From positions 2,027,246 to 2,091,245 of the forward strand of contig OZ246975.1 in NCBI GenBank assembly GCA_965232485.1: DNA of 64,000 nucleotides, written 5' to 3'. This document shows positions 4,779-22,604 of this stretch, piece by piece. The stretch's first letter is position 1, and each line of letters opens with the position of its first letter. Position numbers and translations under genes: made by a program. The notes below the pieces were generated by a model, which ran no database searches, had not been told where the DNA came from, and saw only the letters and a program-made list of their open reading frames with translations. The DNA is from Rhodothermales bacterium (GTDB lineage Bacteria; Bacteroidota; Rhodothermia; Rhodothermales; VXPQ01).

Positions 4779-5144
4779 TTGGACGCATTGTGGGCGTACC
4801 GGCTTGACCTTTCCGGCATAGGGACGCGCCGGGCGCAGAAAACGGCGCGGGCTATCTTGCTTGAACTTGTCGGGATGATCAAATGGAACCCGGACGCGGA
4901 CGACTACGGCCAGGCATGGCCAACCGTCGCAAAGATTGCGGCGCGGATAGACCGTAAACCGCGGGGCGTACAGTACATCATGCGGCGGCTTGAAGCGTCC
5001 GGCTACGTCGTTCGGAGCATCCGCAAGCGTTCCGACGGGGGCAACGCATCGAACCTTTACGCGCTGAATCCGGCGGCGCGGGGTGTGGATAACCCCGCAG
5101 TTTGTGCAGCGGGGTTGGAAAGACGGTGTTGCTTGAAACCCTGA
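4779..5144 (+). CDS. winged-helix DNA-binding protein, plasmid/phage replication-initiator-like; its 3' end runs into the repeat junction
   Basis: 121-aa ORF. The segment WPTVAKIAARIDRKPRGVQYIMRRLEASGYVVRSIRKRSDGGNASNLYALN looks like an HTH/wHTH of small Rep-type proteins. The last ~12 codons lie beyond the junction at 5109. Confidence 0.4.
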   Translation: MDALWAYRLDLSGIGTRRAQKTARAILLELVGMIKWNPDADDYGQAWPTVAKIAARIDRKPRGVQYIMRRLEASGYVVRSIRKRSDGGNASNLYALNPAARGVDNPAVCAAGLERRCCLKP

Positions 5145-6163
5145 AGCCCCTTGCACTTGATCGCGGATGGCTGTGGGTCGGGGCCGATCTAAGTGAAACC
5201 GCCAGCCTGCGGGAAGAGCATATGGCCACTCGGCTATGCACCGATCTGTCGCTTGTAACTTCCTCTGTGGCGGCGTCTGTCAGGCAAGTTCAGCCTTTGG
5301 GGTTCGGCGCGAGCACAAAAACGGTGGAGAACCGGCTTGACTACCGGACCCTGACGGATATCTATCGGCAAACGCCAGGGCTTGCGCTCGACAAAATCAA
5401 AACGGTGCTCGAAACAGCGTGGGCAGCGCTGGCCCACACGGAAATACGCGGAATCGTTTTTGCCTACGACGAAGCCCAAAACCTTGCCGACCATGCCGAC
5501 AAGGAGCAATTTCCCCTCTCGCTGCTTCTGGATACATTCCAGTCTATACAAAGGAAAGAACTTCCTCTGATGCTCGTATTGACGGGATTGCCAACGCTCT
5601 TTCCGTCGCTCGTGGAGTCGCGGACTTTTTCCGAACGCATGTTTCGCGTGGTTTTTCTCGACCGTCTTTCGGAAGACGATAGCCGCGAAGCGATTCAGCG
5701 GCCTGTCGCCAATACGAAAGGAACCGTGCAACTGAGTGATAACTCCGTAGACATGATCGTGAAAATGTCCGGCGGTTATCCATACTTCATCCAGTTTATT
5801 TGCAAGGAAGTGTATGATGCGTTTATCCAGCGTATAGACAGGGGCGAAGACGCCTCCGTGCCTACCTCAGAGATCATGCAGAAGCTGGATACGGATTTCT
5901 TTGCCGGGAGATGGAGTCGGGTAACGGACCGGCAGCGGGAACTGATGCTCGTCATCGCGCAACTGGATAGTAGCGACAGCGAATTCACTGTACAGGAGGT
6001 GGTGAAAAAATCCAATGCCGTACTTGACAAGCCATTCAGCAGCAGTCACGTAAATCAGATGCTATCGACGCTGAGCGCCCGTGGCATGGTTTTTAAGAAC
6101 AGGCATGGTCGATACTCCTTCGCGATACCGCTTTTGGCGAGCTATATCCGGCGCCAAATATAA
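5102..6163 (+). pseudogene. 5'-truncated second copy of the AAA ATPase gene
   Basis: Homology to copy 1 begins inside the Walker A codons (copy 1 residue ~52). It has no equivalent N-terminus, RBS or promoter. The C-terminus differs (..RRQI* versus ..RRQMDGTGE*). Confidence 0.7.
5109..6159 (+). repeat. 1051-bp direct repeat, copy 2
   Basis: See copy 1; offset 4515 bp, near-identical. Confidence 0.9.
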
Positions 6164-6195
6164 TGTGGAATGATACGTTGCGGGCGAGCGAGGTT

Positions 6196-6996
6196 TCACG
6201 GTTCGGTACTACTTTCTTTCGGGGCCCGTTTGCGGGTCCGCCTGGACTCGCCCAGAATCCACCGGGGCTTCAGATCGAGATGGAATCGCGTGTTGGCCGC
6301 CTTGACAATAGCGGAAACGGCCTCTTCGGGGGAATCGGTGATCGTCCATCGCTCGGCGTCTTCCGGACTGATCGTGCCTTCCCGAACCATCGCGCCGGAA
6401 ACGAAGTCGATCATTTCCGACCAGTATTCGGCGCCCATCACGACGACAGGCAAATCCAGAATTTTGCCGGTTTGCACCAGCGTAAGCGTTTCGAATATCT
6501 CGTCCATGGTGCCAAAACCGCCCGGCAACACCACGAAGGCATAAGAGTATTTGACCAACATCACCTTACGGACGAAAAAGTGGTTGAAATCCACCCACTG
6601 GTCCAGATACGGGTTGCGTTCCTGTTCCTCGGGAAGTTCGATGCTGCAACCTATACTGAACCCGCCCGCCTCCTTGGCTCCGCGGTTGGCGGCTTCCATG
6701 ACGCCGGGGCCTCCTCCAGTCATCACCGTGAACCCTGCATTGGCCAGTTCGCTGCCCACTTGTCGAGCCAGCTGGTAGTAAACATGATCTTCGGGGAAGC
6801 GAGCCGAGCCGAAAACCGTCACGCAAGGCCCGACAAAATGCAGTTTGCGAAAGCCCCGGAGGAATTCGAGAAAGATGCGACCGGCCCGGATCAGTTCGGC
6901 CAGCCGCCTGCCCGGCCCGCTCAGGAAAAAGCGTTCTTCAAGCGTGCTTTTTTCGGTGCGCGCAGATCCTGGGGTTGTGTTCTTCGATATTTTCAC
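6196..6996 (-). CDS. LOG / TIGR00730-family Rossmann-fold nucleotide-binding protein (lysine-decarboxylase-like)
   Basis: Motifs: VFGSARF...VMTGGGPGVMEAANRGA...VVLPGGFGTMDEIFE (PGGxGTxxE). GTG start. Confidence 0.85.
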   Translation of the reverse strand: MKISKNTTPGSARTEKSTLEERFFLSGPGRRLAELIRAGRIFLEFLRGFRKLHFVGPCVTVFGSARFPEDHVYYQLARQVGSELANAGFTVMTGGGPGVMEAANRGAKEAGGFSIGCSIELPEEQERNPYLDQWVDFNHFFVRKVMLVKYSYAFVVLPGGFGTMDEIFETLTLVQTGKILDLPVVVMGAEYWSEMIDFVSGAMVREGTISPEDAERWTITDSPEEAVSAIVKAANTRFHLDLKPRWILGESRRTRKRAPKESSTEP

Positions 6997-7255
6997 TTGC
7001 CTGGATTGGATAGTATGAGCAATGCGGTCGAGCCCTCAACTAAAGCCTGTGCAGGATCGTCAAGGACAAAGATACTTGCTCGAACGACGAGGCGCTCCCG
7101 GAATGGGTAATAATCAGAAAAAGTAAATATACCGTATTACCCGTGTTTGCCAATATTGAGCATGCGCGCCGATATTTTTAAACAAGTTATTATTTTTAAG
7201 AATTTATAATAAAATAATGATTGGCGCGGAAACGTTTCCAGAACAAGCGCCCGCG

Positions 7256-7699
7256 TTATCGCCTCCAGAATCTGAATCTGCGCTTGGCCTTCCTCAACTC
7301 GAACGTAACCGGAATTTTCATCCGAATCTTGACGGGATTCCCTTGGCTTAAACCCGGACTGAATCGCGCCTGACGCACTACGCGCAGCGCTTCTTCATCG
7401 CAACCGCCGCCAACACCCTTCTTAACCACCGGATCTTCTACAAGGCCCTTCTCATTGACCATGATCGTCACTATAACTTCTCCCTCGATACCGTTCGCGT
7501 AGGCAGAATCGGGATGCTGTATTAACTTCTGCAAGGACCTTTGTCCTCCAATCAATTCAGGCATTTTCTCCACAATGAAAAGCCGTTCAGGCAGTTCCGG
7601 CTTTTGTTCCTGGCCCAATACTTCCTGTCCCCAGCCCCCAAGTATGATCACCCCGATCAGGGCCGCAAGTCCTCTCCGTCCGGATCGTTTTCTGCGCAT
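7256..7699 (-). CDS. TonB C-terminal-domain protein (energy transducer TonB family)
   Basis: N-terminal membrane anchor, then GIEGEVIVTIMVNEKGLVEDPVVKKGVGGGCDEEALRVVRQARFSPG, which is typical of a TonB C-terminal domain. Confidence 0.8.
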   Translation of the reverse strand: MRRKRSGRRGLAALIGVIILGGWGQEVLGQEQKPELPERLFIVEKMPELIGGQRSLQKLIQHPDSAYANGIEGEVIVTIMVNEKGLVEDPVVKKGVGGGCDEEALRVVRQARFSPGLSQGNPVKIRMKIPVTFELRKAKRRFRFWRR

Positions 7700-7779
7700 T
7701 CTATTTCCGGTAAGGCCAAGTCATTTCGGCAGCGTTCCTGTATAATCCCTCTGGCGCTGCTATATGCGCATTCTCTTTC

Positions 7780-8331
7780 CTACCGTATAGCTACCTTTGC
7801 GCACAACTCCGACCGGTGTGGATTCCGGTCCACCCCAGGCGGACTCGCAAGGGGACACAGTCGCAACACTCCGTGAACCATGGCGCCGCCCTCTGCAGCC
7901 TGATCCCATACCTTTGCCTGCTGTTTCCATAGCACTGCTTCCTGCTCCCATATTTCCGCCTCGCGTTCCTGTGCTTCCACGACCCCCCACCACCTCTCCG
8001 GGGTTTCAATCCGGGCCATATAAGATGCCTCCGCCGCCAATCTCCGCACCGTTTTCGCATGCTGGAACGCCTCTGCCGCCGCAGCCCTCGCCTGCACCGC
8101 CAATGCGTCGTATTCTGCTGCATTCCGGGAATCGTTACGAACCGCCCGCGCCAGGGTGGCGAATGCCGCCGGACGCGTCGCTCTTATCTTTTTCCTCTGG
8201 GCCTCTTCCCGTTGATCATGATCATTGATTGAGCCGCCCGTCGTGCCTTCCCATGTCTGCCCTTGCGCTGCGCAGGGCAGCATAGCAAGCATAATCGCCA
8301 GGATGGCAATGCGTACAGCTGATCGCTTCAT
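7780..8331 (-). CDS. hypothetical secreted protein, Ala/Glu-rich helical
   Basis: Signal peptide MKRSAVRIAILAIMLAMLPCAAQG. No recognisable domain. Confidence 0.45.
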   Translation of the reverse strand: MKRSAVRIAILAIMLAMLPCAAQGQTWEGTTGGSINDHDQREEAQRKKIRATRPAAFATLARAVRNDSRNAAEYDALAVQARAAAAEAFQHAKTVRRLAAEASYMARIETPERWWGVVEAQEREAEIWEQEAVLWKQQAKVWDQAAEGGAMVHGVLRLCPLASPPGVDRNPHRSELCAKVAIR

Positions 8332-8389
8332 GGCCTGGCGTGTTTTGCGAGAAAAAGATTTCGTAAAACAGGGGTACCGCCGGACGCCC

Positions 8390-9760
8390 TCAAGTGTTCT
8401 TGGCAGCGAACCGCCTTATTTCGTCTTCGCTGCGGGGATGGCAGGCACGGTGCACGAGCGCGGCGTTTTCGATCGAGGTCGGGCCTCCCTCGCTGTGGGG
8501 TTCGATGTGATGGAACTCCGCCTCGTTCCAAACGACCTCCTTGCCACAAGCTCCGCACTTCCGCTCATCCCGCCAGTAGACAATCTCACGCTCCAAGGAG
8601 CCTAAAACGCGTCGGCCATCCCGGAGCTTCGGCTGCATGTGCTCCTGCATCTTGGTGCAGAAGAAGAGGTGTCGGTCGCGTATGGCATGCGCCACGTCGC
8701 TACTAGTTCTCGCCTTGTAGCCGTATTGTCGCATGTACTCGAAGTCTCCAGGTTTCATTTCGGCTTGCCCAGCACGCTCGCGAGTCCTGGCTTGGGTGAG
8801 GCGTTCCGTGAAACGGTCGAACGCATCAGCAAACGTTGTCTGCCAAGACTCGGGGACGTATTGAGGATCGAGTAGGGTGCCGACCAACAACACCAAATGG
8901 ATCGCCTGATGACCGACCAGCAAAGGTCGCTTCCCGTCGACCAGCAGCTCGGTCACTGTGCCAATGGCGGCAAGGAATTCCTTGGCGAGCGGCGAGTTGT
9001 TGTCGAACTCCATGTGCTTCACATAGTAGGAATCGACGGCTTTCCGGTTGATGTCGCAGAAACGTCCGTCCTCTCGGTAGGTGGCGAACAACATGACCAT
9101 TTGAGCGGCGAGTTGACGTCCCTTCGGCGTATTGGCCCGAACGTTGGCCCGCAGGAGTTTCCTGAAGAAGTCTTGGCCGGGGTATTTGGCCACGTCCTTC
9201 TTGCCTGCCACCTGACAGACGAAGGCACCGAACGCTCCCGGCCACGCATCCCTCTGCTCTTGAGGCGTCAACGGCTTGCCACCCTGCAACCGAATGAAGA
9301 GGTCGCGCACTTCGTTCTCGTCCTCGGTTTCGATGTGGACCACGGACAGCGGCATCTGGAAGAAGCGCGTGCGTGTACGATCATCCAGTTGATGCATGTC
9401 CCTCCCCGCCCACTCGCAAGGCGAATCGATGAGCGACTTCGGAAAACGCCCCGGGTGCTCTCGTGGATCGAGTAGGGGAAAAGCTCCTTCGGAGAACTCG
9501 TAGAGTGCATGGACCCGCTGCTGACCATCGATGATGTACAGCCGGTCGCCGATTTGGAAGCCACTCACCTCGTTCCCCTTCTTGAAGTGCAGGTAGATCA
9601 GCGGGATGTGGTAGCCTCGGAGAATCGAGTCTATGAAGTACTGCTTCTGTAGGCGCGTCCACACGGGTCCGCGCTGGTATTCGGGGTCCACCTCCAACAG
9701 CTTCTTCTTCTGTAGTGTGAGGAGTTCCTTGACGGTCTGTTGCTTTGGGGTCGATTTCAT
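8390..9760 (-). CDS. DUF262 (ParB/GmrS-like NTPase) fused to a C-terminal zinc-finger HNH nuclease
   Basis: 456 aa. The N-terminus has DPEYQRGPVW (QR at 29-30), IIDGQQR (78-82) and FIRLQGGKPLTPQE. The C-terminus has C402-x2-C405, H417-H418, N432, H437 and C440-H441. Confidence 0.85.
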   Translation of the reverse strand: MKSTPKQQTVKELLTLQKKKLLEVDPEYQRGPVWTRLQKQYFIDSILRGYHIPLIYLHFKKGNEVSGFQIGDRLYIIDGQQRVHALYEFSEGAFPLLDPREHPGRFPKSLIDSPCEWAGRDMHQLDDRTRTRFFQMPLSVVHIETEDENEVRDLFIRLQGGKPLTPQEQRDAWPGAFGAFVCQVAGKKDVAKYPGQDFFRKLLRANVRANTPKGRQLAAQMVMLFATYREDGRFCDINRKAVDSYYVKHMEFDNNSPLAKEFLAAIGTVTELLVDGKRPLLVGHQAIHLVLLVGTLLDPQYVPESWQTTFADAFDRFTERLTQARTRERAGQAEMKPGDFEYMRQYGYKARTSSDVAHAIRDRHLFFCTKMQEHMQPKLRDGRRVLGSLEREIVYWRDERKCGACGKEVVWNEAEFHHIEPHSEGGPTSIENAALVHRACHPRSEDEIRRFAAKNT

Positions 9761-9890
9761 TCGAAAAACTCGCTGGAGAACGGGAACGTCCTTCAGGCCT
9801 CAGCAAGAGGCCGGCCGGCTGGAAACCAAGCTATGTGGTCTGGGTTCCCGGCGCGAGACAGGGGGCATTTGGGGCACGGCAATTGACATT

Positions 9891-12800
9891 TTAGGCCGTG
9901 TACTCTTTCAATCTTTGGTACCGGGGATCATTCTGTATCTCCGGCTTCGCCTGCAAAATGTCCTTTAGACACTGGTTTAGTTCGGGATGCGACCATGGCT
10001 GATCGCTAATGACAGCGTACAGCAAACACAGCGTTGCATTCGGGAATCTTGCACAGAAATCGCCCTCCTGCAGCTGGTGGACAACGTAGTGGGAATACGC
10101 AAGCGGCTGGAGCCAACCGTGGATCAAATCCACCGCATCTGGAAATTTCTCTCCAGCGGCTATGCTCATCAATGCAAGTGACTCCGTGATGTCATCAGAA
10201 ACCAATTCGAGCGATTTTGGCCACATCTCTTGCCAAAAAGGCTGGATACGATTGCTCCAGTAGTCCTCGCGTTGCGCACCTGCGCTTTCAAGCGCTTGCG
10301 AGAGAATTCGTGCCGCTTCCTGCAACCCCTCCTCCTGTGGCAGGGCACTGAACGCCTGCCGAAATCCTGTCGCCTCATCTTTGTCCGTGCATTCCAGCGC
10401 CGCGTAGGTCAGAACTGCAACATACTGCCGCTTGAACTCACCCAAGTCGTCGTAGTGGCTCGCGGTTTCAATGAACTGCGGCCTGAAAGCATCCAGCAGG
10501 GGCCGATAAAGGCGTGGAGACCAGAGGAAGCCTTCCCAGACTATTTGGGCTTCTATGGGATTCTTTGTCCATCGGAAAAGGGGCAACAGATACTGCTCGG
10601 TCCAGGATCGGTCAACCCGAAACAGCGTAATCAATCTTGACGCCAACACTGCTCTACCATGACGGAACTGTTCTACCTGCGTATCACACATTTTCGTGAA
10701 GAGAGGCTCAAGGCCGTCAGGCAGGCGGTCATTGTCGTTCGGCTCGCGCCGGAACCAAAGAGACAACAGCGCTTGGGTAACAAGGCCGACCGGATGGTTG
10801 ATTGCTTCAGTGACAGAGCGCTGGATCCGTTCGCCACCCTGAGTTATTGTTAGGCCAGAACCAGATTCGAAGGGTGAATTCAGAATACGCCGGCACAAAT
10901 CAAGCAGGATTTCATCATGTCCCTCGCCGGATTTGGACGTAGCGTATAGCCACCAGGCAACACCGTGTGCAATCTCCTGCAAAATATTATCAGGCATGGT
11001 CGCTACCAGCGGAGCCGCATAGCGCCACGACCGCTGTACCATATCTTCCTCGCTCCACACCTGTAATGCTTCTCGCCAACGGCTTGCCGGCCAGATGCCT
11101 TGTTGAGCCAAGTCGCAAAGAGCAACAAAGCTCAAGGGGAACTGAGTGCGACATGTATCAGGCCAAGTGTCCTCATCGGACCAATGCTTCTTGGGCGGAG
11201 GAGTCCTTAGCCATTGAACCAAGTCGCGCCGGTTGCGAGGTGCAATATTGATCTCCCTGTTGTCTTCGTAGTCTGGATCTCCGGTTCCACTAATCCAGAG
11301 CGGGAATTCTTCGGGCTCGTGAGGAAGCAATTCCCATGAAGTATTGGTCGAAGACAAGGTATCGAAGCGGCTTTGTGCGGCCTTCCCCAAGTCCAGCCCT
11401 GATGCGTTCAGTTTCGCCAGACGCAACCACACTGAGCGTTTCACAATTTTTTCCCAGTGTGCAGGCTCAAGGTCTTCTGGGTACATGTCGCGCGGAGGAC
11501 CATCCAGAATAGCGGCTTCGAGCATATCCTGAGATGAAGACAGGCAGTGACCTTGTAGCGCCAAGAGGCGCATGACTTCGCGTTGTGTTTCTTCGGACCA
11601 CAGCCACCAACATGCATCACACAGTAACCAGTCAGACCATTGAACCGAATCAATGCATCCATCTTGGCTGGCGGCGAAAAAGGCGAGACGCTTGAACGTG
11701 GGATACGGAAGTTCAAACCATTCCTCTGCAATCCGAGTCGCCCTTGCAAGGTCATCTTCCTGAACAACCTGCCAGGCATCGCGCAGAAGTTCGATCAGTA
11801 TCACCCAGTCGCGGGAGCGCCGATTCTGCCAGTGCGGTTCGATTGAGGGCAGGCCCACAAACGAACCGTCGCTGCGGTCAACTGCCCCGCCTAATTCGCG
11901 CAGGAGATCCAAGGCGTCGCGCAACAATTGCTGTAGATCATCCAATAGCACGGGCAAGGCGGCTCGCCAATGTTCATCGGTCCGATCGCCAATAACCGAT
12001 TGAACATGGTCAGCGGCAAGCACAAGTTCCCAGTCGGGAATGTGTCTCGAGTGCTCGGAAGAATCCGGTTTAACAAGTTCATCAGGCCATCGGAACGGCC
12101 TTCTCAAGGCAATCATGGGCGAAAGAAATTCCCGCAACTTCATACGCAGGGATACAGTCAGGCCGTCGCGCTTCAGGTGATCCACCCACCGGGAAAGACT
12201 GATATCGCCTCGAAAAGATTTCACGCGCCCCCTCAACAATAGACGCCAAAGTAGCCGCATCCTTTCGTCAGGAATAGCCTTTGGAGAATTCGCGCGAATC
12301 TTATCCAGTTCGTCGCTTTTGCCTTCGCGGTTCAGTTTGTCAAGGCGATCAAGCTCGTCCTCGATCAACCCCGCCAATTTCTCATGCAGTCGACTTCCAT
12401 TTTCCACCAGCCAGTAGATCAGCTGAGGGTCGTTAAGGTGTCGCGTCAGCCAGTGGGCGACATAACGCATCACGGCATCCCAACCAGTGTCGCGATTACT
12501 CCCGATGAGCGTCATCCATGGAGTGCGCCCGTAGGATGCAGGTCGATTTATGAAGCTGAACCGGAGATCAGAGTCAATGGGCGGTCGGGACGAGATGCCG
12601 AAGCGACTCAAATCGTCATACCGAAAGCGATTCTCGGAAAATACCGTCAACCACTCGATTGGCGGCGCTGGATTGAGCTCCGCGAAACGCTTGGCTGGAA
12701 GTCCTGATTTATCCGAAAGCGCCCAGAGTACGCGCCCTACGAAGTCATCCTGCTGGGTGCTTGCAGAGGGCCGCGCCAACGCATGTTGAACCACAATCTG

Positions 12801-13712
12801 CTCCTTGCCAAAGACTCCATCGCGGTGGGTTTCCCCCCAGAGTTTCAATGTCTGATGCAGCGCGGCATGGCGGTTCTTTCCTGAACGAACTTCGTAGAGA
12901 ATCGGAAAGACTCCCTTGGACTCCCATGCAATGGATTGGGTCATTTTCTCACCAGGATCGTAACCTCCCAAGGCGTAGGCTTGGGGTGTTGCTTCGCCCA
13001 GCATCCGGTCGGCAGCCAACGCATCCATCATGTAGCGCAACACCGGATCGTTGATGCTATACCCGACAAAACACACCACATAGTTGCGAAACAACTCGCT
13101 GACGAAGCGCGCTGCCCATCGCTCGGTCAGGTAAGCCAAGCCAAAATCGCCGCTGGTAACAACGAGCCTGTGCAGTGCGATCTCGTCTTCGTCCGGTTTC
13201 GAGGGCAACAATCCGTGCAAATAGACGAGCCCATCCCAGCGGCTGGTCTTTGGAATGGGGAGTGTCGGTGCGGTATATGGATGGTACGACTGCTTGCTTC
13301 GTCTGGCAGCGTGCTCAAATATCTGATCGAAATTGGTGGTAACGAGTCGTAGATTCCCATCGCGACCCCGGGCCAGATGGAGGAGCGCGGTGTGGGTATC
13401 GGTAGCCCCGCGGCGTCTGAGTTTGGGTTTCAGGACCTCTGCCAATTCCTTTCGAACGGCGATTCGCTGTCCAGGAAATCGACGTTCCAGCAAGTCTAAG
13501 GCTATGTCGAACTGTTCCCGCTCATAGGCTTTGGCTTCAATCTCGGTAGGATTTGTACCCAATCGCCCATAAATCTTGTCCACCAACCCCTTGAAGCCCG
13601 GCAATCCTGCGGGATAGGAAATGCCCGCTCCACAGAAGAACACTGCGCGGTCCTCTTCGTGCGCCTGCAGAAGAGCATCTGGAATGTCCGGGCCGTTGCT
13701 TATGAATTGCAT
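9891..13712 (-). CDS. 1273-aa protein: N-terminal SIR2-like (SIR2_2) NADase domain plus a ~1000-aa Trp-rich helical C-terminal region; DSR1/DSR2-like architecture
   Basis: Motifs: FFCGAGIS (28-32), VTTNFD (Asn127), YLHG (His166), CFVGYSINDP. The remainder has no motif I recognise. GC looks lower than in the core genes. Confidence 0.85.
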   Translation of the reverse strand: MQFISNGPDIPDALLQAHEEDRAVFFCGAGISYPAGLPGFKGLVDKIYGRLGTNPTEIEAKAYEREQFDIALDLLERRFPGQRIAVRKELAEVLKPKLRRRGATDTHTALLHLARGRDGNLRLVTTNFDQIFEHAARRSKQSYHPYTAPTLPIPKTSRWDGLVYLHGLLPSKPDEDEIALHRLVVTSGDFGLAYLTERWAARFVSELFRNYVVCFVGYSINDPVLRYMMDALAADRMLGEATPQAYALGGYDPGEKMTQSIAWESKGVFPILYEVRSGKNRHAALHQTLKLWGETHRDGVFGKEQIVVQHALARPSASTQQDDFVGRVLWALSDKSGLPAKRFAELNPAPPIEWLTVFSENRFRYDDLSRFGISSRPPIDSDLRFSFINRPASYGRTPWMTLIGSNRDTGWDAVMRYVAHWLTRHLNDPQLIYWLVENGSRLHEKLAGLIEDELDRLDKLNREGKSDELDKIRANSPKAIPDERMRLLWRLLLRGRVKSFRGDISLSRWVDHLKRDGLTVSLRMKLREFLSPMIALRRPFRWPDELVKPDSSEHSRHIPDWELVLAADHVQSVIGDRTDEHWRAALPVLLDDLQQLLRDALDLLRELGGAVDRSDGSFVGLPSIEPHWQNRRSRDWVILIELLRDAWQVVQEDDLARATRIAEEWFELPYPTFKRLAFFAASQDGCIDSVQWSDWLLCDACWWLWSEETQREVMRLLALQGHCLSSSQDMLEAAILDGPPRDMYPEDLEPAHWEKIVKRSVWLRLAKLNASGLDLGKAAQSRFDTLSSTNTSWELLPHEPEEFPLWISGTGDPDYEDNREINIAPRNRRDLVQWLRTPPPKKHWSDEDTWPDTCRTQFPLSFVALCDLAQQGIWPASRWREALQVWSEEDMVQRSWRYAAPLVATMPDNILQEIAHGVAWWLYATSKSGEGHDEILLDLCRRILNSPFESGSGLTITQGGERIQRSVTEAINHPVGLVTQALLSLWFRREPNDNDRLPDGLEPLFTKMCDTQVEQFRHGRAVLASRLITLFRVDRSWTEQYLLPLFRWTKNPIEAQIVWEGFLWSPRLYRPLLDAFRPQFIETASHYDDLGEFKRQYVAVLTYAALECTDKDEATGFRQAFSALPQEEGLQEAARILSQALESAGAQREDYWSNRIQPFWQEMWPKSLELVSDDITESLALMSIAAGEKFPDAVDLIHGWLQPLAYSHYVVHQLQEGDFCARFPNATLCLLYAVISDQPWSHPELNQCLKDILQAKPEIQNDPRYQRLKEYTA

Positions 13713-13805
13713 TGAGTGGGTCTACTTCTTCTCACTGGTCGGGCTATATTAAGAAGCGCAGTGTGTCCGTCCTTGTTTGACGGACTGTCAAGGAAATACT
13801 AAACT

Positions 13806-16361
13806 TCACCCCCGAAACAGCATCTCATTCAGCCGCGCTTGCCACTCCTCCTCGTCAACGACCTCAAAGCGCACTACCTTGCTTCGCATTGCAGGAACGA
13901 ATTGGGCCCAATCTGCCTTGCGGGCATGGTCGCTACAGATATCGAAGACGGACCGCTTGTATTCAGTGTCTTCCGACCCCTTCAGGTGAACGCCTTTGGT
14001 TTCGACTACGAAAACCTGGTGAAAGTCATCATCTGCTTCGGACTCGTCGTCCCGCAACGTCACGATGAAATCGGCGTATATCCGACGTGGCCTCCATCCC
14101 TGCACATAGTAATCCTTGCGAGCACGGTTGCGATACCAAAAGAAGAGCCGGGCTTGTTGATCCAGATAGGTCGCCACCTTGTTCTCGAACTGGTTGAGAT
14201 CATCCTCTGTGGTGACATCGAAAAGGTTCCGCTGGTAGGGGCTGCCGTCCTCCCGGTTCGCCTGCTTCGCTTGTGGAACCTCAATTTTTTCGGGAAGGCT
14301 ATTGAAATCGAGATCCTCTGTGACAACCAGAAAGCGCATCTTGCCTGACTCCAGGAGACGGCGAAAGACTTCCCGCGACAAGCGGTCGCGCTCCATCTCA
14401 ATCTGTCGGCGCAGCTCCTCGAGGATAAAAACATGATTGGCCGCCACGCGCTCGAATGGATAACGCTCAAGCAGTACCCTGAAAGTACGGCGAGCCAAAT
14501 CGCACCCTCGCCACGGATTGGGCACCAGATCCAGCAGGTGGCTGGCAGCAAAAAAGTAATCCACGGGGTCGGTATCGCTGCTTGCCCCAGACCCATTCGT
14601 TGTTTCAACCCCGGAAACATCAAACCCCGGAATGCTTGCGTCATCCGTCAGGTTTGCTCGCAACGCCACATCTCCTTGATTGCCCTCGCCCATATTCAGA
14701 TCGCCCAATGGACTAATGTCGATGTCGCCCCAGGGCACCCTTGAGAGGATGTCCGCCTCGTAATGAACCAGACGCCAACCATCCACACCTCGAATCATAA
14801 AGACAGGGAGGACCAGATCGCGCGCTGCTTTCCGGTAATTATCCCGCTGCCGAGTCATCTGTTTCTCCGCTGGCCCGGTCAGACTTTCATTGGAAACTAC
14901 TCTTCCTTCCAGTCCCTGCAAGCCCTCCAGCCCGAATCCTTTCCTAACTTCTCTCAACAACTCGTTTGCACGACGACTGAAACAGAAGACATAGCTCTCG
15001 TCAAGCCAAGCCACCCTGGTTTTCTGTGCATACGGCTGTCGCAAAATACGCCCGACCAACTGCGTGATCCCCGTTCTTGACATTGGGTTGGTGAGGATCG
15101 TCAGAATGTAGGCGAACGAACAATCCCAACCTTCCTGTAGCGCCTGTTTGGTGATGATGAAACGGATCGAACAGTCACGGGACATCAGACCGCCTATGTC
15201 GTCCACCTCCTTGAGATCGTCTTGTACGCTGGTCTTGACCGCAATGTGCTCCGCGCCGATTCCCGGGTGCTGGAGCAGGTACTCGCGCACGTCGTCGGTG
15301 TGAACGTATCCGGGCTTGCGCTGCTCTTTGCCGGTTCTTTCGACCTGGATTACGCAAATGGGCCGGATGTAGCTCCCGGTCTCCGCTTCGTGCCGCTGCG
15401 CTTCCACCTCCAGGTGCTCGCGGTGTTCGATCGACGCAAGCAACGTATTCCGCCAGTCGTTGCTTGCCTTGTTAAGAATGTGCAGGTCCAGCTTGATCAT
15501 CTCTTCGGCGTTAAGCTCCTGGCCCCGGATCTCGACGAGCACATTGGCGCCCTTGGTTGGCGTGGCCGAAAGCTCCACAATCATGCACGGGTTGAAACCT
15601 TCGAGCGTCGCTTTTGCGTTGGCGCTGTACGCCTTGTGTCCCTCGTCAAGGATGATCAGGGGCCGTAGCAGACGCACTGTGTTGCCAAGCGAGGTCTTGA
15701 TGTAGCGGCCCCAGAAGCCTGTCGTTTGCTCGAAGGTATCGAGATTGGGATATTCCTCCAGCATTTTGGCGTGCGCCGGGGAATCGTCGTCCGGAGGAAA
15801 AAACCGGTCGAAGCCCCCGCTGTCGCGAAACATCCGCAGTGTATCCTTCGTCTGCCGGTTAGCCGACGGAAGCATGAGCAAAAGGATACAAAGGTTCTCA
15901 GCGACATCGCGCGGGCCAAAGGCCATGGTTTTCTCAAGGATGAGCGTACGCTGCCCTGACGCCAGATCGATCTGTTGGCGATAAGGGTGGTCGCGATCCT
16001 TGAGCGCCTTGAGCGTCTGATTGTATATCTGCGTTGTAGGCACGATCCACAGAACGAGCCCGCGCTGATTCTGCCGGAAATGTACGTTGACAAGGTCAAT
16101 CACCTTGGTTGCAAGCAATGTCTTGCCGCCGCCAGTCGGAACCTTGAGGCAGAAAGTAGGCAAATAGTCGCCGAGTCCGTTGCGACGAGGAATACATATC
16201 CTCCCGGGTACTGTCTTGCTCCATGCCCGTTGAACCCAGTCGAAACCCCAATCGGGGTTCTGGCTTCGGGCATCCCCGTCCGCTTTCCTCCACTTTGCGA
16301 GATTCTCAAGGAAATCGTGTACTGTTTCCAGCGTTCGCTTTTGGTATTCCTTCAGGATCAT
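13806..16361 (-). CDS. res: Type III restriction endonuclease, Res subunit (SF2 helicase plus C-terminal PD-(D/E)xK)
   Basis: 851 aa. Walker A VPTGGGKTLLA, DEGH box LIILDEGHKAY, and a C-terminal YADFIV...VFVVETKG nuclease-like motif. The start overlaps the mod stop (ATGA). Confidence 0.9.
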   Translation of the reverse strand: MILKEYQKRTLETVHDFLENLAKWRKADGDARSQNPDWGFDWVQRAWSKTVPGRICIPRRNGLGDYLPTFCLKVPTGGGKTLLATKVIDLVNVHFRQNQRGLVLWIVPTTQIYNQTLKALKDRDHPYRQQIDLASGQRTLILEKTMAFGPRDVAENLCILLLMLPSANRQTKDTLRMFRDSGGFDRFFPPDDDSPAHAKMLEEYPNLDTFEQTTGFWGRYIKTSLGNTVRLLRPLIILDEGHKAYSANAKATLEGFNPCMIVELSATPTKGANVLVEIRGQELNAEEMIKLDLHILNKASNDWRNTLLASIEHREHLEVEAQRHEAETGSYIRPICVIQVERTGKEQRKPGYVHTDDVREYLLQHPGIGAEHIAVKTSVQDDLKEVDDIGGLMSRDCSIRFIITKQALQEGWDCSFAYILTILTNPMSRTGITQLVGRILRQPYAQKTRVAWLDESYVFCFSRRANELLREVRKGFGLEGLQGLEGRVVSNESLTGPAEKQMTRQRDNYRKAARDLVLPVFMIRGVDGWRLVHYEADILSRVPWGDIDISPLGDLNMGEGNQGDVALRANLTDDASIPGFDVSGVETTNGSGASSDTDPVDYFFAASHLLDLVPNPWRGCDLARRTFRVLLERYPFERVAANHVFILEELRRQIEMERDRLSREVFRRLLESGKMRFLVVTEDLDFNSLPEKIEVPQAKQANREDGSPYQRNLFDVTTEDDLNQFENKVATYLDQQARLFFWYRNRARKDYYVQGWRPRRIYADFIVTLRDDESEADDDFHQVFVVETKGVHLKGSEDTEYKRSVFDICSDHARKADWAQFVPAMRSKVVRFEVVDEEEWQARLNEMLFRG

Positions 16362-18262
16362 GGTTCCAGCCTCTCGATCGCCTCGTATATCTGAAAGGGC
16401 AACTGCTGGAAATCGATCCGGTATTCGTGAAGAAACTCTGGATCCAGGTACTTGGCGGGTGCAAAGACGAGCCGCTTACGCTTGCTGCTGGGCAGAGTGC
16501 GGGCGACAGGAAGGGTCAGCGCGAGATTCTTGAGCTTTTCGACATTCGGCTCATAGAGAAGAAAAACATCATGCGACGCGGTGCGACCGACAAACCCGGT
16601 GTCACTGTTAGTCTCGGCCGGGTCGAACTCCTGTCCGGTCGCTGTGAAGAAGATGTACGAGGCGAGCTTCTCCCACGACGGGAGGTGGGAGCCGTCGAGG
16701 AGCGACTCCTGGCGCATGGGGCGCCCAAGCTCGAAGTAGCTGAAGGTGCCACCGAGGCCCTCAGTATGTTCGACAACTGCCGTCTCACCAGCGACGACGA
16801 GTTTTCCTTTCTCGAATTGCCTCGATATTTGGTCGTAATCGTCCCTGTACTGCTCCTCAATGGCCTTCACGGACCCTGTCAGTTTGTCGCTTAGCTTCGC
16901 CCATGTGATCTCCTCCCGCATCAACTCTGTCTTCTGGGTACCCGTGAAGGCGTATCCGTTGATGACGCGCCGGACGCGCTCGGCAGTGATCGTGTCCGCA
17001 TAGTCCTCGCACTCGACCAAAATGAAACGCCGGTTGCCACCGTCCTCCCGGTTCTGGGCGAGGACAGCGTGGGCCGTAGTGCCGGAACCAGCGAAAGAAT
17101 CGAGAACGATGGAGTCGGGGTCCGTGGCGATCTGGAGGATGCGGCGAACGAGGCGAGACGGCTTGACGGTGTTGAATACGTCTTCGGATCGCTCGAATTG
17201 GAGCGCGGAGACCAGTTCTTTCTTTGCTTCCTGCGTGTTGCCAACATCGGTGTGAAGCCAAAGTGTCTGCGGGACGACTCCCTTCCTCACATCGGTCAGG
17301 AATCGCTTGAGGCGAGGCATGCTGTTGCCACCCTTTCCCCACCAAACCCGCCCGTCCTTATCCAGTTCAGCGAACTTCTTGGGAGATACGCGAAAGTAGT
17401 TGCCGACCGACGGCTTGAACTTCTTTCCAGCGGGGCTGGTAACCTCGTAGGTGCCTTGACCGTAGAAATTTCGTGCCGTCAAGTCGCTGGAGGACCACGG
17501 CCCCCGTGGATCATCATCAGGATTCTTGTAACGTCCAGTCGCCCGCTCACTACGCGCTATCAAGTTTGGGCGCCATGCTTCAATGCGCCGCGCGTACGCC
17601 ATCACGTAGTCGTGATCTTCCGAGAAGTATTTCGCGGTGTTCTTCGGGGAAAAGACTTTCTGCCATATGGCGGTGGCCAAGAAGTTTTCCTCGCCGAACA
17701 CCTCGTCCATCAGAGAGCGCAGGTGATGCACTTCGTTGTCGTCGATGGACACGAAGATCGCCCCGTCCTCCCGGAGCAGTTCGCGCAGCAGCTTCAGGCG
17801 CGGCGTCATCATGCAGCACCACTTGTCGTGGCGGGTCAAGTCGTCTCGGTCTACCACCTTGCCCAACCAGTTCTTCATCAGCGGCGAAGTCACGTTGTCG
17901 TTGTACGCCCAGCCCTCGTTCCCCGTGTTGTAAGGCGGGTCGATGTACACGCACTTCACCTTGCCGTGATAGGTCGGCAACAGCGACTTGAGCGCGGCCA
18001 GGTTGTCGCCGTGGATGATCAGGTTATCGCGCAGGCTTGCCTTCTCGCTCAGCCCCTTCTCACGCACTGGCAGCAGCTCGTGGAAGGGCACAGCCAAGTG
18101 ATGGTTCTCGACAAAGACCTTGCCCTTGAAATGGAGTCGCGGCAAAGGATCCCTCCTCTGAAATCTATTATTTAACGTGCATCCACTGCTTTGCCCACTA
18201 GCGCTACGGAACGCCTGCCTTAAACTAAGCCCCGTATTGTCGCCGCACAACCCGTTTTCCAT
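16358..18262 (-). CDS. mod: Type III R-M DNA methyltransferase, Mod subunit (beta-class N6A/N4C MTase)
   Basis: 634 aa. VYIDPPYNTG (motif IV) precedes DSFAGSGTTAHAV (motif I). The first ~40 codons are uncertain. Confidence 0.9.
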   Translation of the reverse strand: MENGLCGDNTGLSLRQAFRSASGQSSGCTLNNRFQRRDPLPRLHFKGKVFVENHHLAVPFHELLPVREKGLSEKASLRDNLIIHGDNLAALKSLLPTYHGKVKCVYIDPPYNTGNEGWAYNDNVTSPLMKNWLGKVVDRDDLTRHDKWCCMMTPRLKLLRELLREDGAIFVSIDDNEVHHLRSLMDEVFGEENFLATAIWQKVFSPKNTAKYFSEDHDYVMAYARRIEAWRPNLIARSERATGRYKNPDDDPRGPWSSSDLTARNFYGQGTYEVTSPAGKKFKPSVGNYFRVSPKKFAELDKDGRVWWGKGGNSMPRLKRFLTDVRKGVVPQTLWLHTDVGNTQEAKKELVSALQFERSEDVFNTVKPSRLVRRILQIATDPDSIVLDSFAGSGTTAHAVLAQNREDGGNRRFILVECEDYADTITAERVRRVINGYAFTGTQKTELMREEITWAKLSDKLTGSVKAIEEQYRDDYDQISRQFEKGKLVVAGETAVVEHTEGLGGTFSYFELGRPMRQESLLDGSHLPSWEKLASYIFFTATGQEFDPAETNSDTGFVGRTASHDVFLLYEPNVEKLKNLALTLPVARTLPSSKRKRLVFAPAKYLDPEFLHEYRIDFQQLPFQIYEAIERLEP

Positions 18263-18390: not shown

Positions 18391-21300
18391 TTGCGATCAA
18401 ATCATCCCGCCAGTCAGGAAGCAATCGGCCCAAATGCCTCATCCTGCGAACATCCCGACCCGTTTCGTCGTTTTTCGATGCGCCCGGCGCGAAACCGCGC
18501 GCCAGCGCAACAGCCGTTTCACGTCTTTCCCGCCCAAAACCCGTTCGATCCCGTGGCGCTTGCTTCGATCCGCAGGCAACTGGCCTCCACGGACGTCTTT
18601 CGCAAGGCGTCCGCATGGTGTGAACGAATAGACCCCGAAGCCCCCTCTACGCTTCAAATAAAAGGGTTGGCCGGATCCGTCTCGTCCTTCCTGCTGGCCC
18701 GACTCCACGAAACGGCCAACGCGGCGAATATCCTCTGCGTCTACATTGCGCCGAACGAGGAAATAGCCGCCTGGGCCTTCGGAGACATTGCCCAGCTGGT
18801 CGAGGAAGACGAGGGCGCCCTGCAACTGCCGGCCACGGGACACAAACCCTACGACGCCGAACAACTGGACGATCTGGCCCCGATCATCGCCCGGACCGAT
18901 GTGCTGCAACAAATCGCCGACGGATTCCACGGCCTGGTCGTAACGAGCGTCGAGGCGCTTGTGGAAATGACTCCCCCCGCGGAAACGATCCGAAACCGCA
19001 CGATCTCCATCGCTACGGGAATGGTCTTTCCGCCGGAGAAACTGGCGCAGCGCCTGGTGAAATTGGGTTTCGAGCACGCCGAGTTCGTGGAGCGACCCGG
19101 AGAAATAGCGCTTCGGGGCGGCATCCTCGACATCTATCCATTCACCGGCTCGTGGCCCATCCGGGCAGAATTCTTCGGCGACGACATCGAATCCCTGCGC
19201 GAATTCGACCCCCGGTCGCAACGATCCATCAGCCGCCTGACCACCGCCCGCCTCGTTCCGAATACGGGGAACGATCTGTCCGACGCCAGCGCCCGCGCAT
19301 CCATCTTCGAACAATTTCCCGAACGCGCGCTGCTTGTCACGACGGACGAAGAAGGGCTGACAGAACACGCCGCCAAGCGATTCGAAGCCACCGAAAAAGC
19401 CTGGCGCCATGCGCTGCGCGAAATCCCCGAAGCGCCCGTCCCCGCCACGCGGTATCTCTCTGGCGAAGCCTTCGAGCAAGCTTTGCTCCTTCGTAATCGG
19501 ATACTGCTTGGCTCGTTCGGCGGCGGCGGCGAACGCCTCCTTCGGTTCGACGCCGCCCCGCAACCGGACTTCAATGGGAATATCGGCCTGCTTCGCACGC
19601 GCATTCTGACCAACGCCGAACGCGGCGTGCGCACCTTTATCCTTTGCGATAGTCGAGGGCAAGAGGTTCGCCTGTCCGAACTCCTCGGCGACGAAACAGC
19701 CCAGGAAAATGTTCGCATCTCCATCGAATCGCTGCACGAAGGATTCGAAATTCCCTCGCTTGGCCTGGCCGTCTACACGGATCATCAGATATTCAATCGT
19801 TACCACCGTCCCTCCGTGCGCGGGCAAAAGAAACGGTACGGCGGACTGGGCCTGCAAGCGCTGAAAAATCTCTCGCCCGGCGATTTCGTGGTCCATGTGG
19901 ATTACGGAATCGGCCGCTTCGCCGGACTGCATCGCATCACGGTGCGCGAAAAACAGCAGGAATCCGTCAAAGTGCTTTTTCGGGACGAGGACATCCTGTA
20001 TGTCAATGTCAATGCGCTCCACAAACTCCACAAATATTCCGGCAAGGACGGGCGGCCGCCCACGCTCACCAAGCTGGGTTCCGGGCAATGGGAGCGCACG
20101 AAATCCCGCGCCAAAGGCAAGGTCAAGGATATTGCGCGAGACCTGATCGCGCTCTACGCAAAGCGAAAACAATCCGCCGGGGTCGCTTTTTCCCCGGACA
20201 CGATCTGGCAGCGGGAAATGGAAGCCTCGTTCCGCTACGAGGACACGCCAGACCAGACCGCCGCCACAGACGCCGTCAAAGCCGATATGGAAACGGCGGC
20301 GCCCATGGATCGGCTGATCTGCGGAGACGTCGGATTCGGCAAAACGGAAGTCGCTGTCCGGGCAGCCTTCAAGGCGGCGCAGGACGGTAAACAGGTGGCG
20401 ATCCTGGCCCCCACCACCATCCTTGCCGCGCAACATTTCAAAACCTTCTCGAAAAGGCTGGAAAAATATCCGGTCTATGTGGAGATGTTGTCGCGTTTCC
20501 GCTCCGCCGCCGAGCAAAAACAGATCGTCCGGCGCCTCGCGGACGGCGATGTGGACATTGTGGTGGGGACGCATCGCCTGACTTCGCAGGATATCCGGTT
20601 CAAAGACCTGGGCCTGCTCATTATCGACGAAGAGCAACGCTTCGGGGTAGCCGTCAAGGAACGCCTGCGAAAACTGCGCGCCGAGGTGGATACGCTTACC
20701 CTTACCGCAACGCCCATCCCCCGAACGCTTCAATTCTCTCTGCTGGGCGCCCGGGATTTATCGCTCGTCACCACGCCGCCCCCGAACCGGCAACCGGTCA
20801 ACACGGAGATCCATACTTTCGACAAGGACCTGATCCGGGACGCCATCCTGTACGAAGTCAGTCGAGGCGGACAGGTCTTCTTTCTGCACAACAACATCTG
20901 CACTATCGACGAAATGGCCGACAGCCTGCGCCTCATCGTCCCGAACGTTCGCATGCGAACGGCGCACGGGCAAATGAAATCGAGCGCGCTGGAACAGGTC
21001 ATGGCGGATTTTATCGGCGGACGGTTCGACGTACTCGTGAGCACCAGCATCATTGAGAACGGCCTCGACATACCCAACGCCAATACGATCATTATCGATC
21101 GGGCGGACCGGTTCGGTCTCGCCGAACTGCACCAGCTTCGCGGGCGCGTCGGGCGTTCGGACCGAAAAGCCTTCTGCTACCTGCTTGTTTCGTCCATCCA
21201 CGGACTCACGCGCGAAGCGCGGCAACGACTGCAAGCCGTCGAGGAATTTTCGGACCTCGGGGGCGGATTCAATCTGGCCATGCGCGATCTGGATATCCGG

Positions 21301-21924: not shown

Positions 21925-21944
21925 CAGGCGGGGGTCCGGCGCAA

Positions 21945-22604
21945 TCAGGAACGAGGCGCACAGACGAGAATCGCCTTGTCCCGGAACCACGGGCGCGGAT
22001 CCATATTTGCAAGATCGATCCGCTCGACGTCCGCCTCGCCTGCAACAGACGCTATTTCGTCCGACAGATCGCCTCCTTTCAGGCAAATGGCGGCGGGACG
22101 CCAGGTATCCGCATCCAGCAGACGAGCGCAAGGGCGGGCGACGCGGCGATGCCATGCCCATACATCCCGAAGCGGCGCCGCGGCCCGCGACGCCGAATAG
22201 ACATAGCCCGAATCGCATTGGGCCTGTTCGGCGGCGGAAAAAGCCCCGGCGTCGCCGCGCCAGACCGTCGCATTCGCAAGTCCGAGGCGCCGAATCATGG
22301 CGCGCAGAGCCTGTGCCTTCTTCTCGACCTTGTCTATGGCGATCACCCGGATATCCGGGCAGGCGATCGCCAACGGAATCGCTGGAAGGCCGCCGCCGGT
22401 CCCCCAATCAATCACAACCGCTCCGGGCGGAAAACGACGACATGTCAGAAACAGACAGTGCAGGCAATGCATCCGAACCGCTTCCGCATCGGCTTCCCGC
22501 GAAATGAGATTGACGCGGCGGTTGAATTCGAGCAGCATGGCCTGATACGCATTCAGGAGCTGCTTCTGCTCGGCCGTCCATGATCGAAAAGGGTCCACGA
22601 ACAT
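21945..22604 (-). CDS. rsmG: 16S rRNA (guanine527-N7)-methyltransferase
   Basis: VIDWGTGGGLPAIPLAI SAM-binding motif. It sits next to mnmG as in the canonical gidA-gidB pair. Confidence 0.9.
   Translation of the reverse strand: MFVDPFRSWTAEQKQLLNAYQAMLLEFNRRVNLISREADAEAVRMHCLHCLFLTCRRFPPGAVVIDWGTGGGLPAIPLAIACPDIRVIAIDKVEKKAQALRAMIRRLGLANATVWRGDAGAFSAAEQAQCDSGYVYSASRAAAPLRDVWAWHRRVARPCARLLDADTWRPAAICLKGGDLSDEIASVAGEADVERIDLANMDPRPWFRDKAILVCAPRS

Follow-up and report, generated by a model that had tools for sequence, protein, structure and literature searches.

Within the window, by which we mean the whole 64,000-nucleotide stretch of DNA that was analysed, a small defence island lies beside mfd at 8.4-18.3 kb and comprises a type III Mod-Res pair, a dsr1 gene and a GmrSD/HNH gene, in that order (Table 1). 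The dsr1 reading frame starts with ATG and is intact over 1273 codons. More than 3836 homologues of the encoded protein were found at E ≤ 1e-5, many of which bear the NCBI name Dsr1 and show 62-64% identity at 100% coverage. The number of homologues, together with the invariant active-site residues in relatives, establishes that this reading frame is a real gene. Its GC3 is 0.59 compared with about 0.70 in most flanking genes, suggesting that dsr1 is of foreign origin. A sigma-70 promoter and terminator scan around dsr1 returned sites no more often than in shuffled sequence and found no promoter; expression of the gene is assumed here. The long minus-strand reading frames at 18439-20733 and 20758-22407 were dismissed; the gene that occupies this stretch is mfd, on the plus strand.

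Table 1. Features of the dsr1 locus, in window coordinates.
Feature	Position	Strand	Basis
dsr1 coding sequence, 1273 aa + stop	9891..13712	-	ORF list and translation; NCBIfam NF041818; PADLOC PDLC02183
N-terminal SIR2 (SIR2_2-type) NADase effector domain, residues ~1-279	12876..13712	-	Pfam, PADLOC, AF2 and Foldseek
GAGIS glycine-rich NAD-binding loop, residues 28-32	13617..13631	-	G30, I31 and S32 invariant, G28 ≥90% conserved in 46 relatives
Asn127 codon (TTNFD motif, 125-129)	13332..13334	-	Invariant in 46 relatives; aligns with KomC N107
His166 codon (YLHG motif, 164-167), putative catalytic His	13215..13217	-	Invariant in 46 relatives; aligns with KomC H146
Dsr1 sensor region, residues 280-1273, Trp-rich alpha-solenoid	9894..12875	-	AF2 model, homologue clusters
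Type III restriction enzyme Res subunit (context, outside Dsr1)	13806..16361	-	93 bp upstream; Pfam ResIII; PADLOC REase_III E 1.4e-163
Type III DNA methyltransferase Mod subunit (context)	16358..18262	-	Pfam N6_N4_Mtase; PADLOC MTase_III E 8e-178
GmrSD_N (DUF262) + HNH nuclease, probable type IV-like restriction protein (context)	8390..9760	-	130 bp downstream; Pfam; PADLOC NsnA E 4.5e-24

The identity of the protein was given by curated models that span its whole length. The NCBIfam equivalog NF041818.1 ('anti-phage defense-associated sirtuin Dsr1') matched with 1929 bits against a cutoff of 1400, aligning residues 1-1272 to positions 1-1262 of a 1263-position profile, and the PADLOC Dsr1 model PDLC02183 matched residues 1-1272 to model positions 1-1270 of 1275 with 2012 bits. 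Another PADLOC Dsr1 model was likewise matched at full length (669 bits), and the match to a third, PDLC04166, was confined to the SIR2 domain. BLASTP alignments to the Dsr1 proteins of E. coli O55:H7 CB9615 (WP_001159679.1; 60% identity, 762/1276) and E. coli PAR (WP_094058323.1; 61% identity, 773/1277) were collinear, covering residues 1-1272 with 10-13 gaps (10 for WP_001159679.1) and no domain-scale insertions or deletions. The experimentally tested EcDsr1 accession, WP_029488749.1, was not among the accessions of the five E. coli dsr1 loci examined, which carry five others. The architecture is that of Dsr1, namely a single chain of the ~1250-1280 aa class in which SIR2_2 is followed by a helical sensor of ~1000 aa, with no other Pfam domain. 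Nothing found in these sequence comparisons contradicts full-length Dsr1 membership; the family is already known, and this copy is without unusual features.

Because the curated Dsr1 models match the whole length, the ~1000-residue tail is the known Dsr1 sensor rather than a new module. An earlier sequence-only reading had likened the protein to the single-protein defence sirtuins, its active site apparently intact and its sensor helical, all of which was upheld, but its suggestion that the tail might be an unassigned, novel module was not; by its own terms, a whole-length alignment to a characterised DSR1 or DSR2 family would make this a known system, and the full-length Dsr1 match places it in one.

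The active-site motifs named in that reading, GAGIS, TTNFD with N127 and YLHG with H166, are all present in the N-terminal domain. Pfam assigned SIR2_2 to residues 123-271 (E 5.5e-22), and the PADLOC ThsA/SIR2 models aligned to residues 14-247. Across residues 1-300, N127, H166 and G30-I31-S32 were unchanged in 46/46 aligned relatives of 72-86% identity. The closest solved SIR2 domain by sequence is that of KomC (E 8e-4), in which the counterpart of H166 is H146, the position substituted in the H146N structure deposited as 9xvc. When residues 1-300 were modelled with AlphaFold2 and searched with Foldseek, SIR2 domains from KomC, ThsA and DSR2 were matched (E 4e-8 to 1e-5, TM ~0.5). The model of this domain is poor near H166, with pLDDT <50 over residues 141-199, and the active-site call is therefore a sequence-based one. 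Judged by the residues present, the SIR2 NADase-type active site is intact.

The C-terminal 994 residues contain 4.4% Trp, 12.8% Leu and 8.6% Arg, as against 0.9% Trp in the other reading frames of the window (7176 residues), and their AlphaFold2 model is almost wholly alpha-helical with a mean pLDDT of 77, which agrees with the earlier description of a helical C-terminus rich in Trp, Leu and Arg. That this region holds no nameable motif was a fair statement at the level of Pfam, which found no domain in the ~1000 residues C-terminal to SIR2_2. A sequence-profile search of the sensor against solved PDB chains gave no match, and a PDB Foldseek search of its model gave generic HEAT/karyopherin solenoids only. 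The Dsr1 sensor family thus has neither a profile match nor a specific fold match among solved structures. The comparison with DSR2 by AlphaFold and Foldseek that had been proposed earlier was positive for the SIR2 domain but not for the sensor, no DSR2 chain appearing among its best 50 matches.

Relatives of the sensor fell into 2857 clusters at 50% identity (E ≤ 1e-3), and the best 150 representatives were proteins of ~1250 aa or shorter fragments. A search for sensor homologues joined to other effectors, which the preprint on EcDsr1 (10.64898/2026.01.04.697583) describes, found SIR2_2 in all eight of the best 150 that were scanned with Pfam, these eight having been picked for an unusually short or long N-terminal region. 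The shorter homologues among the eight look like truncated gene calls. Weak plasmid tblastn matches are also annotated as 'SIR2 family protein'.

The neighbourhood of dsr1 changes from one genome to another. The order mfd-Mod-Res-Dsr1 occurs also in the relatives L003 and L012, whose Dsr1 proteins are 79% and 82% identical to the one described here, and relatives with this island order probably belong to Rhodothermales. Linkage of dsr1 to Mod-Res was found among the closest relatives only. On a contig with an 84%-identical Dsr1, the gene is surrounded by Mu and IS transposases and R-M genes are absent; Dsr1 loci at 73%, 61% and 58% identity are likewise without R-M genes, as are the E. coli loci, where a prophage integrase is the neighbour. 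In Zooshikella the neighbours are a Tn3 transposase, KfrA and an integrase, and dsr1 was also found on plasmids and in one Stx2c phage record. Neighbours thus differ across E. coli, Arenicellales, Curvibacter, Zooshikella and metagenomic relatives, indicating that Dsr1 is a stand-alone gene. The best explanation is that dsr1 is horizontally acquired cargo, independent of the adjacent type III R-M and GmrSD/HNH genes. A conserved partner was also considered and rejected: a 183-aa reading frame overlapping the end of Dsr1 in relative L013 is dissimilar to the 183-aa reading frame at 7780-8331 of the window (E 0.94). The window frame begins with what resembles a signal peptide, and its only conserved counterpart is in the close relative L012.

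Published work on other Dsr1 proteins supplies the functional background. DSR1 depletes NAD+ upon infection (10.1101/2021.12.14.472415), the DSR1 used in the NAD+ assays of Garb et al. having been expressed in B. subtilis and possibly representing another Dsr1 subtype. NARP1 and NARP3 oppose DSR1 by rebuilding NAD+. For EcDsr1, the major capsid protein of phage ZL19 was the sole activator among 73 phage genes screened, toxicity was lost upon disruption of the NADase domain, and the sensor is homologous to that of Avs7, a bilobed TPR-type solenoid; in the published tree the Dsr1 and Avs7 sensors form one homologous family with capsid protein as the common trigger (PMC12803255 / 10.64898/2026.01.04.697583). 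Cloned EcDsr1 defends alone, against a range of a few phages only.

Taken together, it is highly likely that the 1273-aa protein is an ortholog of Dsr1 acting by the proposed mechanism of capsid-triggered NAD+ depletion. In this model, Dsr1 would be made constitutively and held inactive until infection, when its ~1000-residue Trp-rich solenoid sensor (residues ~280-1273) is bound by a structural protein that the phage has just synthesised, the major capsid protein being the likeliest candidate. Binding would alter the conformation or oligomeric state of the protein and thereby switch on the N-terminal SIR2 domain through its GAGIS loop, N127 and H166; we infer activation via oligomerisation. 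The SIR2 domain would then hydrolyse NAD+ to ADP-ribose and nicotinamide, and the loss of NAD+ would halt phage replication through abortive infection or transient arrest. NAD+ depletion, the capsid trigger and dependence on the NADase domain are carried over by analogy from published work on other family members, and use of the same trigger by this ortholog is likewise an extrapolation from them. With only 60% identity to the E. coli Dsr1 from which the mechanism derives, this protein could have a sensor of different specificity.

The last point underlies an alternative in which the protein is a Dsr1 ortholog whose sensor, having diverged in this probable Rhodothermales lineage, is triggered by some part of the phage that is not an HK97-fold major capsid protein. 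Identity to the Dsr1 sensors of enterobacteria and Ralstonia is only about 56-59%, the trigger is known for just one protein, from E. coli, with phages of one family, and rapid evolution is usual in the sensor regions of defence proteins. However, the published tree unites the Dsr1 and Avs7 sensors under a common capsid trigger and the E. coli Dsr1 alignment remains collinear throughout, so that we regard a different trigger as unlikely. Functional coupling of Dsr1 to the upstream Mod-Res genes, with co-transcription as a three-gene unit, would accord with the shared strand of Mod, Res and dsr1, the spacer of just 93 bp between Res and dsr1, and the recurrence of the gene order in L003 and L012. 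Yet this recurrence is compatible with shared ancestry, the flanking mfd/rsmG stretch being 91% identical at the DNA level, and both the R-M-free loci at 84% identity and below and the protection conferred by cloned EcDsr1 by itself make such coupling very improbable. A joint reading, in which this divergent, probably Rhodothermales Dsr1 has a trigger that is not a Drexlerviridae-type major capsid protein and the Mod-Res-Dsr1-GmrSD/HNH block conserved beside mfd forms a co-regulated cassette for multi-layer defence, appears quite doubtful.

An affinity to DSR2 was the other possibility that the sequence-only reading had left open beside Dsr1; it would imply sensing of the phage tail tube protein. 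The shared layout of an N-terminal SIR2 domain and a long helical C-terminus speaks for it, as does the similarity of the SIR2-domain model to DSR2 structures (E ~1e-6, TM ~0.5-0.57), but the PADLOC Dsr2 models gave no hit at E ≤ 0.01, DSR2 chains were unmatched by phmmer and by profile and absent from the 50 best Foldseek matches of the sensor model, and the Dsr1 models already account for the full length; of the two affinities, that to Dsr1 stands and that to DSR2 is effectively refuted. There is similarly little probability that the gene is an inactive relic or encodes a housekeeping sirtuin, that is, a protein deacetylase outside defence. Although the scan recognised no promoter around it, the gene keeps its full reading frame and every family-invariant residue, its SIR2_2 subtype and nearest structures are those of defence NADases and not of deacetylases, and it sits between two restriction systems. 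Collectively, these considerations favour a Dsr1 ortholog with the capsid-triggered mechanism, and the main value of the analysis lies in the correct annotation, the appropriate gene label being dsr1.

Among known systems, ThsA of type I Thoeris and KomC (8zsf, 9xvc) provide the closest solved SIR2 domains by fold, with a catalytic His that aligns with H166. In contrast to Dsr1, they lack a fused sensor of ~1000 aa and are switched on by partner proteins or by small-molecule signals. The PADLOC ThsA models matched residues 15-247 only, and weakly (E 2e-7), and Pfam and PADLOC detected no SLOG or TIR domain in Dsr1 or its neighbours and no ThsB or KomAB partner. DSR2 of Bacillus subtilis (8wkn, 8wy8, 8xff) resembles Dsr1 in that a single protein joins a SIR2 NADase to a long alpha-solenoid sensor; the SIR2 folds are similar, and both are phage-triggered NAD+ depletion systems, for Dsr1 as known from other family members. 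Their sensors, however, are unrelated in sequence and without specific fold similarity, and DSR2 detects the tail tube protein.

The sensor of Dsr1 has been linked to Avs7, a STAND NTPase which, according to the preprint of Lee et al. (2026), has a homologous sensor and the same major capsid protein trigger. The two differ in their remaining parts: the STAND NTPase domain is absent from Dsr1, no NTPase family (NACHT/NB-ARC-type) being matched in the window protein by Pfam, NCBIfam or PADLOC, and SeAvs7, the Avs7 protein on which that preprint worked, acts as a nuclease whereas the effector of Dsr1 is a SIR2 NADase. A divergent ortholog from a different phylum could aid structural and comparative study of capsid recognition by the Dsr1 and Avs7 sensors. 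The closest counterpart is E. coli Dsr1, which corresponds to the window protein in length (1274-1275 versus 1273 aa), domain order and catalytic residues, is end-to-end collinear with it at 60-61% identity, and is likewise a stand-alone mobile gene. The two are separated by about 40% sequence divergence, by a proteobacterial host as opposed to a lineage nearest a Rhodothermales MAG, and by a prophage integrase context as opposed to one of type III R-M and GmrSD/HNH genes.

The window protein is Dsr1, not Dsr2. Against the NCBIfam equivalog NF041818.1 ("anti-phage defense-associated sirtuin Dsr1"), it scored 1929 bits (curated cutoff, 1400), with residues 1-1272 aligned to positions 1-1262 of the 1263 in the profile; because the cutoff is exceeded, the standard NCBI annotation pipeline would label this gene dsr1. 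The PADLOC Dsr1 model PDLC02183 matched residues 1-1272 over positions 1-1270 of 1275 (2012 bits), a second, PDLC04167, matched end to end (669 bits) and a third, PDLC04166, matched the SIR2 part alone; no PADLOC Dsr2 model matched at E<=0.01. The sequence-only reading had left undecided whether the tail belonged to DSR1/DSR2 or formed a new sensor module, and had named full-length alignment to either family beforehand as the mark of a known system. Since the whole length aligns to DSR1, that mark is present and a new sensor module is not borne out. All defining features of Dsr1 open to computation were found in the window protein, and those of DSR2, ThsA and STAND/Avs proteins were not. Because these Dsr1 features are present and we found no indel, exchanged domain or altered active site marking out this copy, the window dsr1 is already known, and an identical sequence is present in public databases.

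A nucleotide search identified a dsr1-related gene in 91 complete E. coli genomes, with dsr1 annotated in 15 of the 15 listed records. The proteins of E. coli O55:H7 CB9615 (WP_001159679.1; 60% identity, 762/1276, 10 gaps) and strain PAR (WP_094058323.1; 61% identity, 773/1277, 13 gaps) were collinear with the window protein from residue 1 to 1272. More than 3836 homologues were detected in a large protein collection at E<=1e-5; query coverage was 99-100% in all of the best 120, several of which carry the NCBI name Dsr1 at 62-64% identity (Methylocaldum, Noviherbaspirillum, Thauera, Burkholderia, Ralstonia). At E<=1e-3, a search with the sensor only (residues 280-1273) returned relatives in 2857 clusters (50% identity); the top 150 were mostly proteins of ~1250 aa with a match beginning near residue 275, together with shorter fragments. 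SIR2_2 was present in all eight sensor relatives of atypical length that were scanned.

We confirmed in every particular the open reading frame, coordinates and three SIR2 motifs given by the sequence-only reading. SIR2_2 (residues 123-271, E 5.5e-22) was the sole Pfam domain, and the remaining ~1000 residues had no Pfam match; the claim that this tail holds no nameable motif therefore stands at the Pfam level and fails with whole-protein models, which replace domain models and so allow the tail to be assigned. Its description as W/L/R-rich and helical agreed with both the AlphaFold2 model and residue composition: Trp made up 4.4% of the C-terminal 994 residues, ~5 times the 0.9% of other ORFs in the window (7176 residues), and this part was rich in Leu (12.8%) and Arg (8.6%) too. 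N127, H166 and G30-I31-S32 were invariant across alignments of 46 relatives, in which most SIR2 domain positions were at least 90% conserved. The solved proteins closest by sequence matched within the SIR2 domain only; in the best of them, KomC (8zsf, E 8e-4), N107 aligns with N127, and H146, which is altered in the deposited catalytic mutant 9xvc, aligns with H166. Family membership, intact catalytic residues and domain layout are thus direct observations on the window Dsr1.

Features of the window around dsr1 and motifs of its product
Feature	Position	Strand	Remark
AAA_16-type ATPase, intact copy	440-1663		407 aa
AAA_16-type ATPase, 5'-truncated copy	5102-6163		protein 99% identical to intact copy
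183-aa ORF	7780-8331	-	signal-peptide-like N-terminus MKRSAVRIAILAIMLAMLPCAAQGQ; no family match
GmrSD_N (DUF262) + C-terminal HNH protein	8390-9760	-	456 aa; 130 bp downstream of dsr1
dsr1	9891..13712	-	ATG start, 1273 codons + stop
Type III restriction subunit Res	13806-16361	-	directly upstream of dsr1, ends 93 bp before
Type III methyltransferase Mod	16358-18262	-	upstream of Res, same strand as dsr1
mfd	18391-21924	+	core genome resumes past Mod; then rsmG, mnmG, mnmE, yidC
GAGIS motif	Dsr1 residues 28-32
TTNFD motif	Dsr1 residues 125-129		includes N127
YLHG motif	Dsr1 residues 164-167		includes H166

The gene lies in a defence island beside mfd, whose product, the transcription-repair coupling factor, carries UvrB_inter, CarD_TRCF_RID, DEAD, Helicase_C and TRCF domains. 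Two minus-strand ORFs overlapping mfd, 18439-20733 (764 aa) and 20758-22407 (549 aa), had no family match and are shadow ORFs of this GC-rich gene. GC3 was lower in dsr1 (0.59) than in most flanking genes (~0.70), which fits horizontal acquisition. The GmrSD/HNH gene, with NsnA as its best PADLOC match (E 4.5e-24), probably stands apart as a type IV-like restriction or defence gene within the same island. The 93-bp Res-dsr1 spacer contains a perfect 7-bp inverted repeat (13765-13785, minus strand, GTCCGTC-AAACAAG-GACGGAC) 20 nt past the Res stop codon and without a following T-run; possible roles are weak termination, RNA processing and operator function. No sigma-70-like promoter was found on the same strand.

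In the closest genome of the species collection, a Rhodothermales MAG (L003) with a 79%-identical Dsr1, the mfd/rsmG region shares 91% DNA identity with the window and the Mod-Res-Dsr1 block is 83-87% identical in the same order, with the GmrSD/HNH segment absent from the equivalent position. A metagenomic contig (L012) with an 82%-identical Dsr1 has the exact window order of mfd, Mod, Res, Dsr1, GmrSD/HNH and 183-aa ORF, so that at least the latter two genes are common to both. The 183-aa ORF is 78% identical to its L012 counterpart and unrelated to a 183-aa ORF lying over the Dsr1 stop codon at another locus (L013). Window Mod has ~65 extra residues (around 435-500) relative to its 74%-identical L003 homologue (5711-7336); the two may differ here in their target-recognition region. 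Between the Res proteins, identity is 82% over the whole length.

We also observed a 1.05-kb direct repeat (594-1645 and 5109-6160; 3 mismatches, 4515 bp apart) that duplicates most of the AAA_16-type ATPase gene and encloses 3.5 kb in which GC is lower (0.42 at 3-4 kb) and four ORFs matched no family library. This arrangement could have arisen recently by insertion or duplication, or could be an artefact of assembly; L003 has a single homologue, between mfd and Mod. A 315-aa ORF (6163-7110, plus strand), without a match in Pfam, NCBIfam or PADLOC, starts on the last base of the truncated copy's stop codon. In L003 the homologue, with 85% identity in DNA, comes immediately downstream of Dsr1, and hence the segment with GmrSD/HNH, the 183-aa ORF and TonB_C (~6960-9874) is missing there.

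Elsewhere, an 84%-identical Dsr1 sits amid Mu and IS transposases without restriction-modification genes, a 73%-identical one likewise lacks them, and more distant loci adjoin a DDE transposase or Tn3/KfrA/integrase genes. In 4 of 4 E. coli chromosomes examined (L001, L008-L010), dsr1 directly follows the tyrosine integrase gene of a prophage that sits downstream of yjjG, close to the tRNA-Leu cluster. Full-length copies were also found on 12 plasmids and in one Stx2c-converting phage record (LC727881.1), where dsr1 lies near the start with no annotated feature beneath the match. Just upstream of Dsr1 in an Arenicellales MAG (OZ246969.1; L005, 3637-7396), a short additional SIR2_2 protein (325 aa) is encoded; the start of a 935-aa ORF lacking Pfam matches overlaps its end, and a DDE transposase gene comes next. 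The first two may form a further SIR2 defence system of two genes.

The mechanism proposed here comes from the literature rather than from our computation. DSR1 is a single-gene defence system that lowers NAD+ in infected cells, there transiently and without culture collapse (10.1101/2021.12.14.472415); the DSR1 behind these B. subtilis measurements may be a different subtype than the window protein. DSR1 is counteracted by NARP1 and NARP3, phage pathways that rebuild NAD+; the NARP3 study worked with an E. coli dsr1 clone. The Gao and Koonin groups, in a 2026 preprint (PMC12803255; updated version of April 2026), describe the Dsr1 sensor as homologous to that of the STAND protein Avs7. In the AlphaFold3 models there, a TPR-like solenoid has two lobes and a sharp bend; when 73 ZL19 phage genes were screened as a barcoded library, the major capsid protein was the only activator of EcDsr1 toxicity, which was abolished by NADase domain disruption (PMC12803255). 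By extension from a 60%-identical relative, the capsid protein would bind the window Dsr1 sensor and switch on the SIR2 domain, whose hydrolysis of NAD+ would cause phage replication to fail; the experimentally tested accession, WP_029488749.1, may differ from the two proteins aligned here, and five E. coli loci yielded five other accessions. That oligomerisation acts as the switch is suggested solely by analogy with Avs7, DSR2, ThsA and KomC. It is unlikely that the window lineage uses a different trigger or that dsr1 is co-regulated with the restriction genes next to it; the gene order common to L003 and L012 reflects shared island ancestry and is not evidence of coupling.

The AlphaFold2 model of the sensor (residues 280-1273), built from a 46-sequence alignment, was nearly all alpha-helical (mean pLDDT 77, pTM 0.50), and Foldseek retrieved nothing more specific than HEAT/karyopherin-type solenoids (best E 4e-4, TM <=0.27). 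Neither profile nor Foldseek searches detected an experimentally solved relative of the Dsr1 sensor, a result that concerns the whole family rather than the window locus. Assignment to Dsr1 over Dsr2 also follows because the family sequence profile found no solved chain covering the sensor, even at E<=1, and no DSR2 chain was among the top 50 Foldseek matches of the sensor model. The only moderate AlphaFold2 model of residues 1-300 (pLDDT 63; <50 at residues 141-199, H166 included) resembles the SIR2 fold of KomC, ThsA and DSR2 by Foldseek (E 4e-8 to 1e-5, TM ~0.5-0.57), a predicted likeness that places it among the defence SIR2 NADases.
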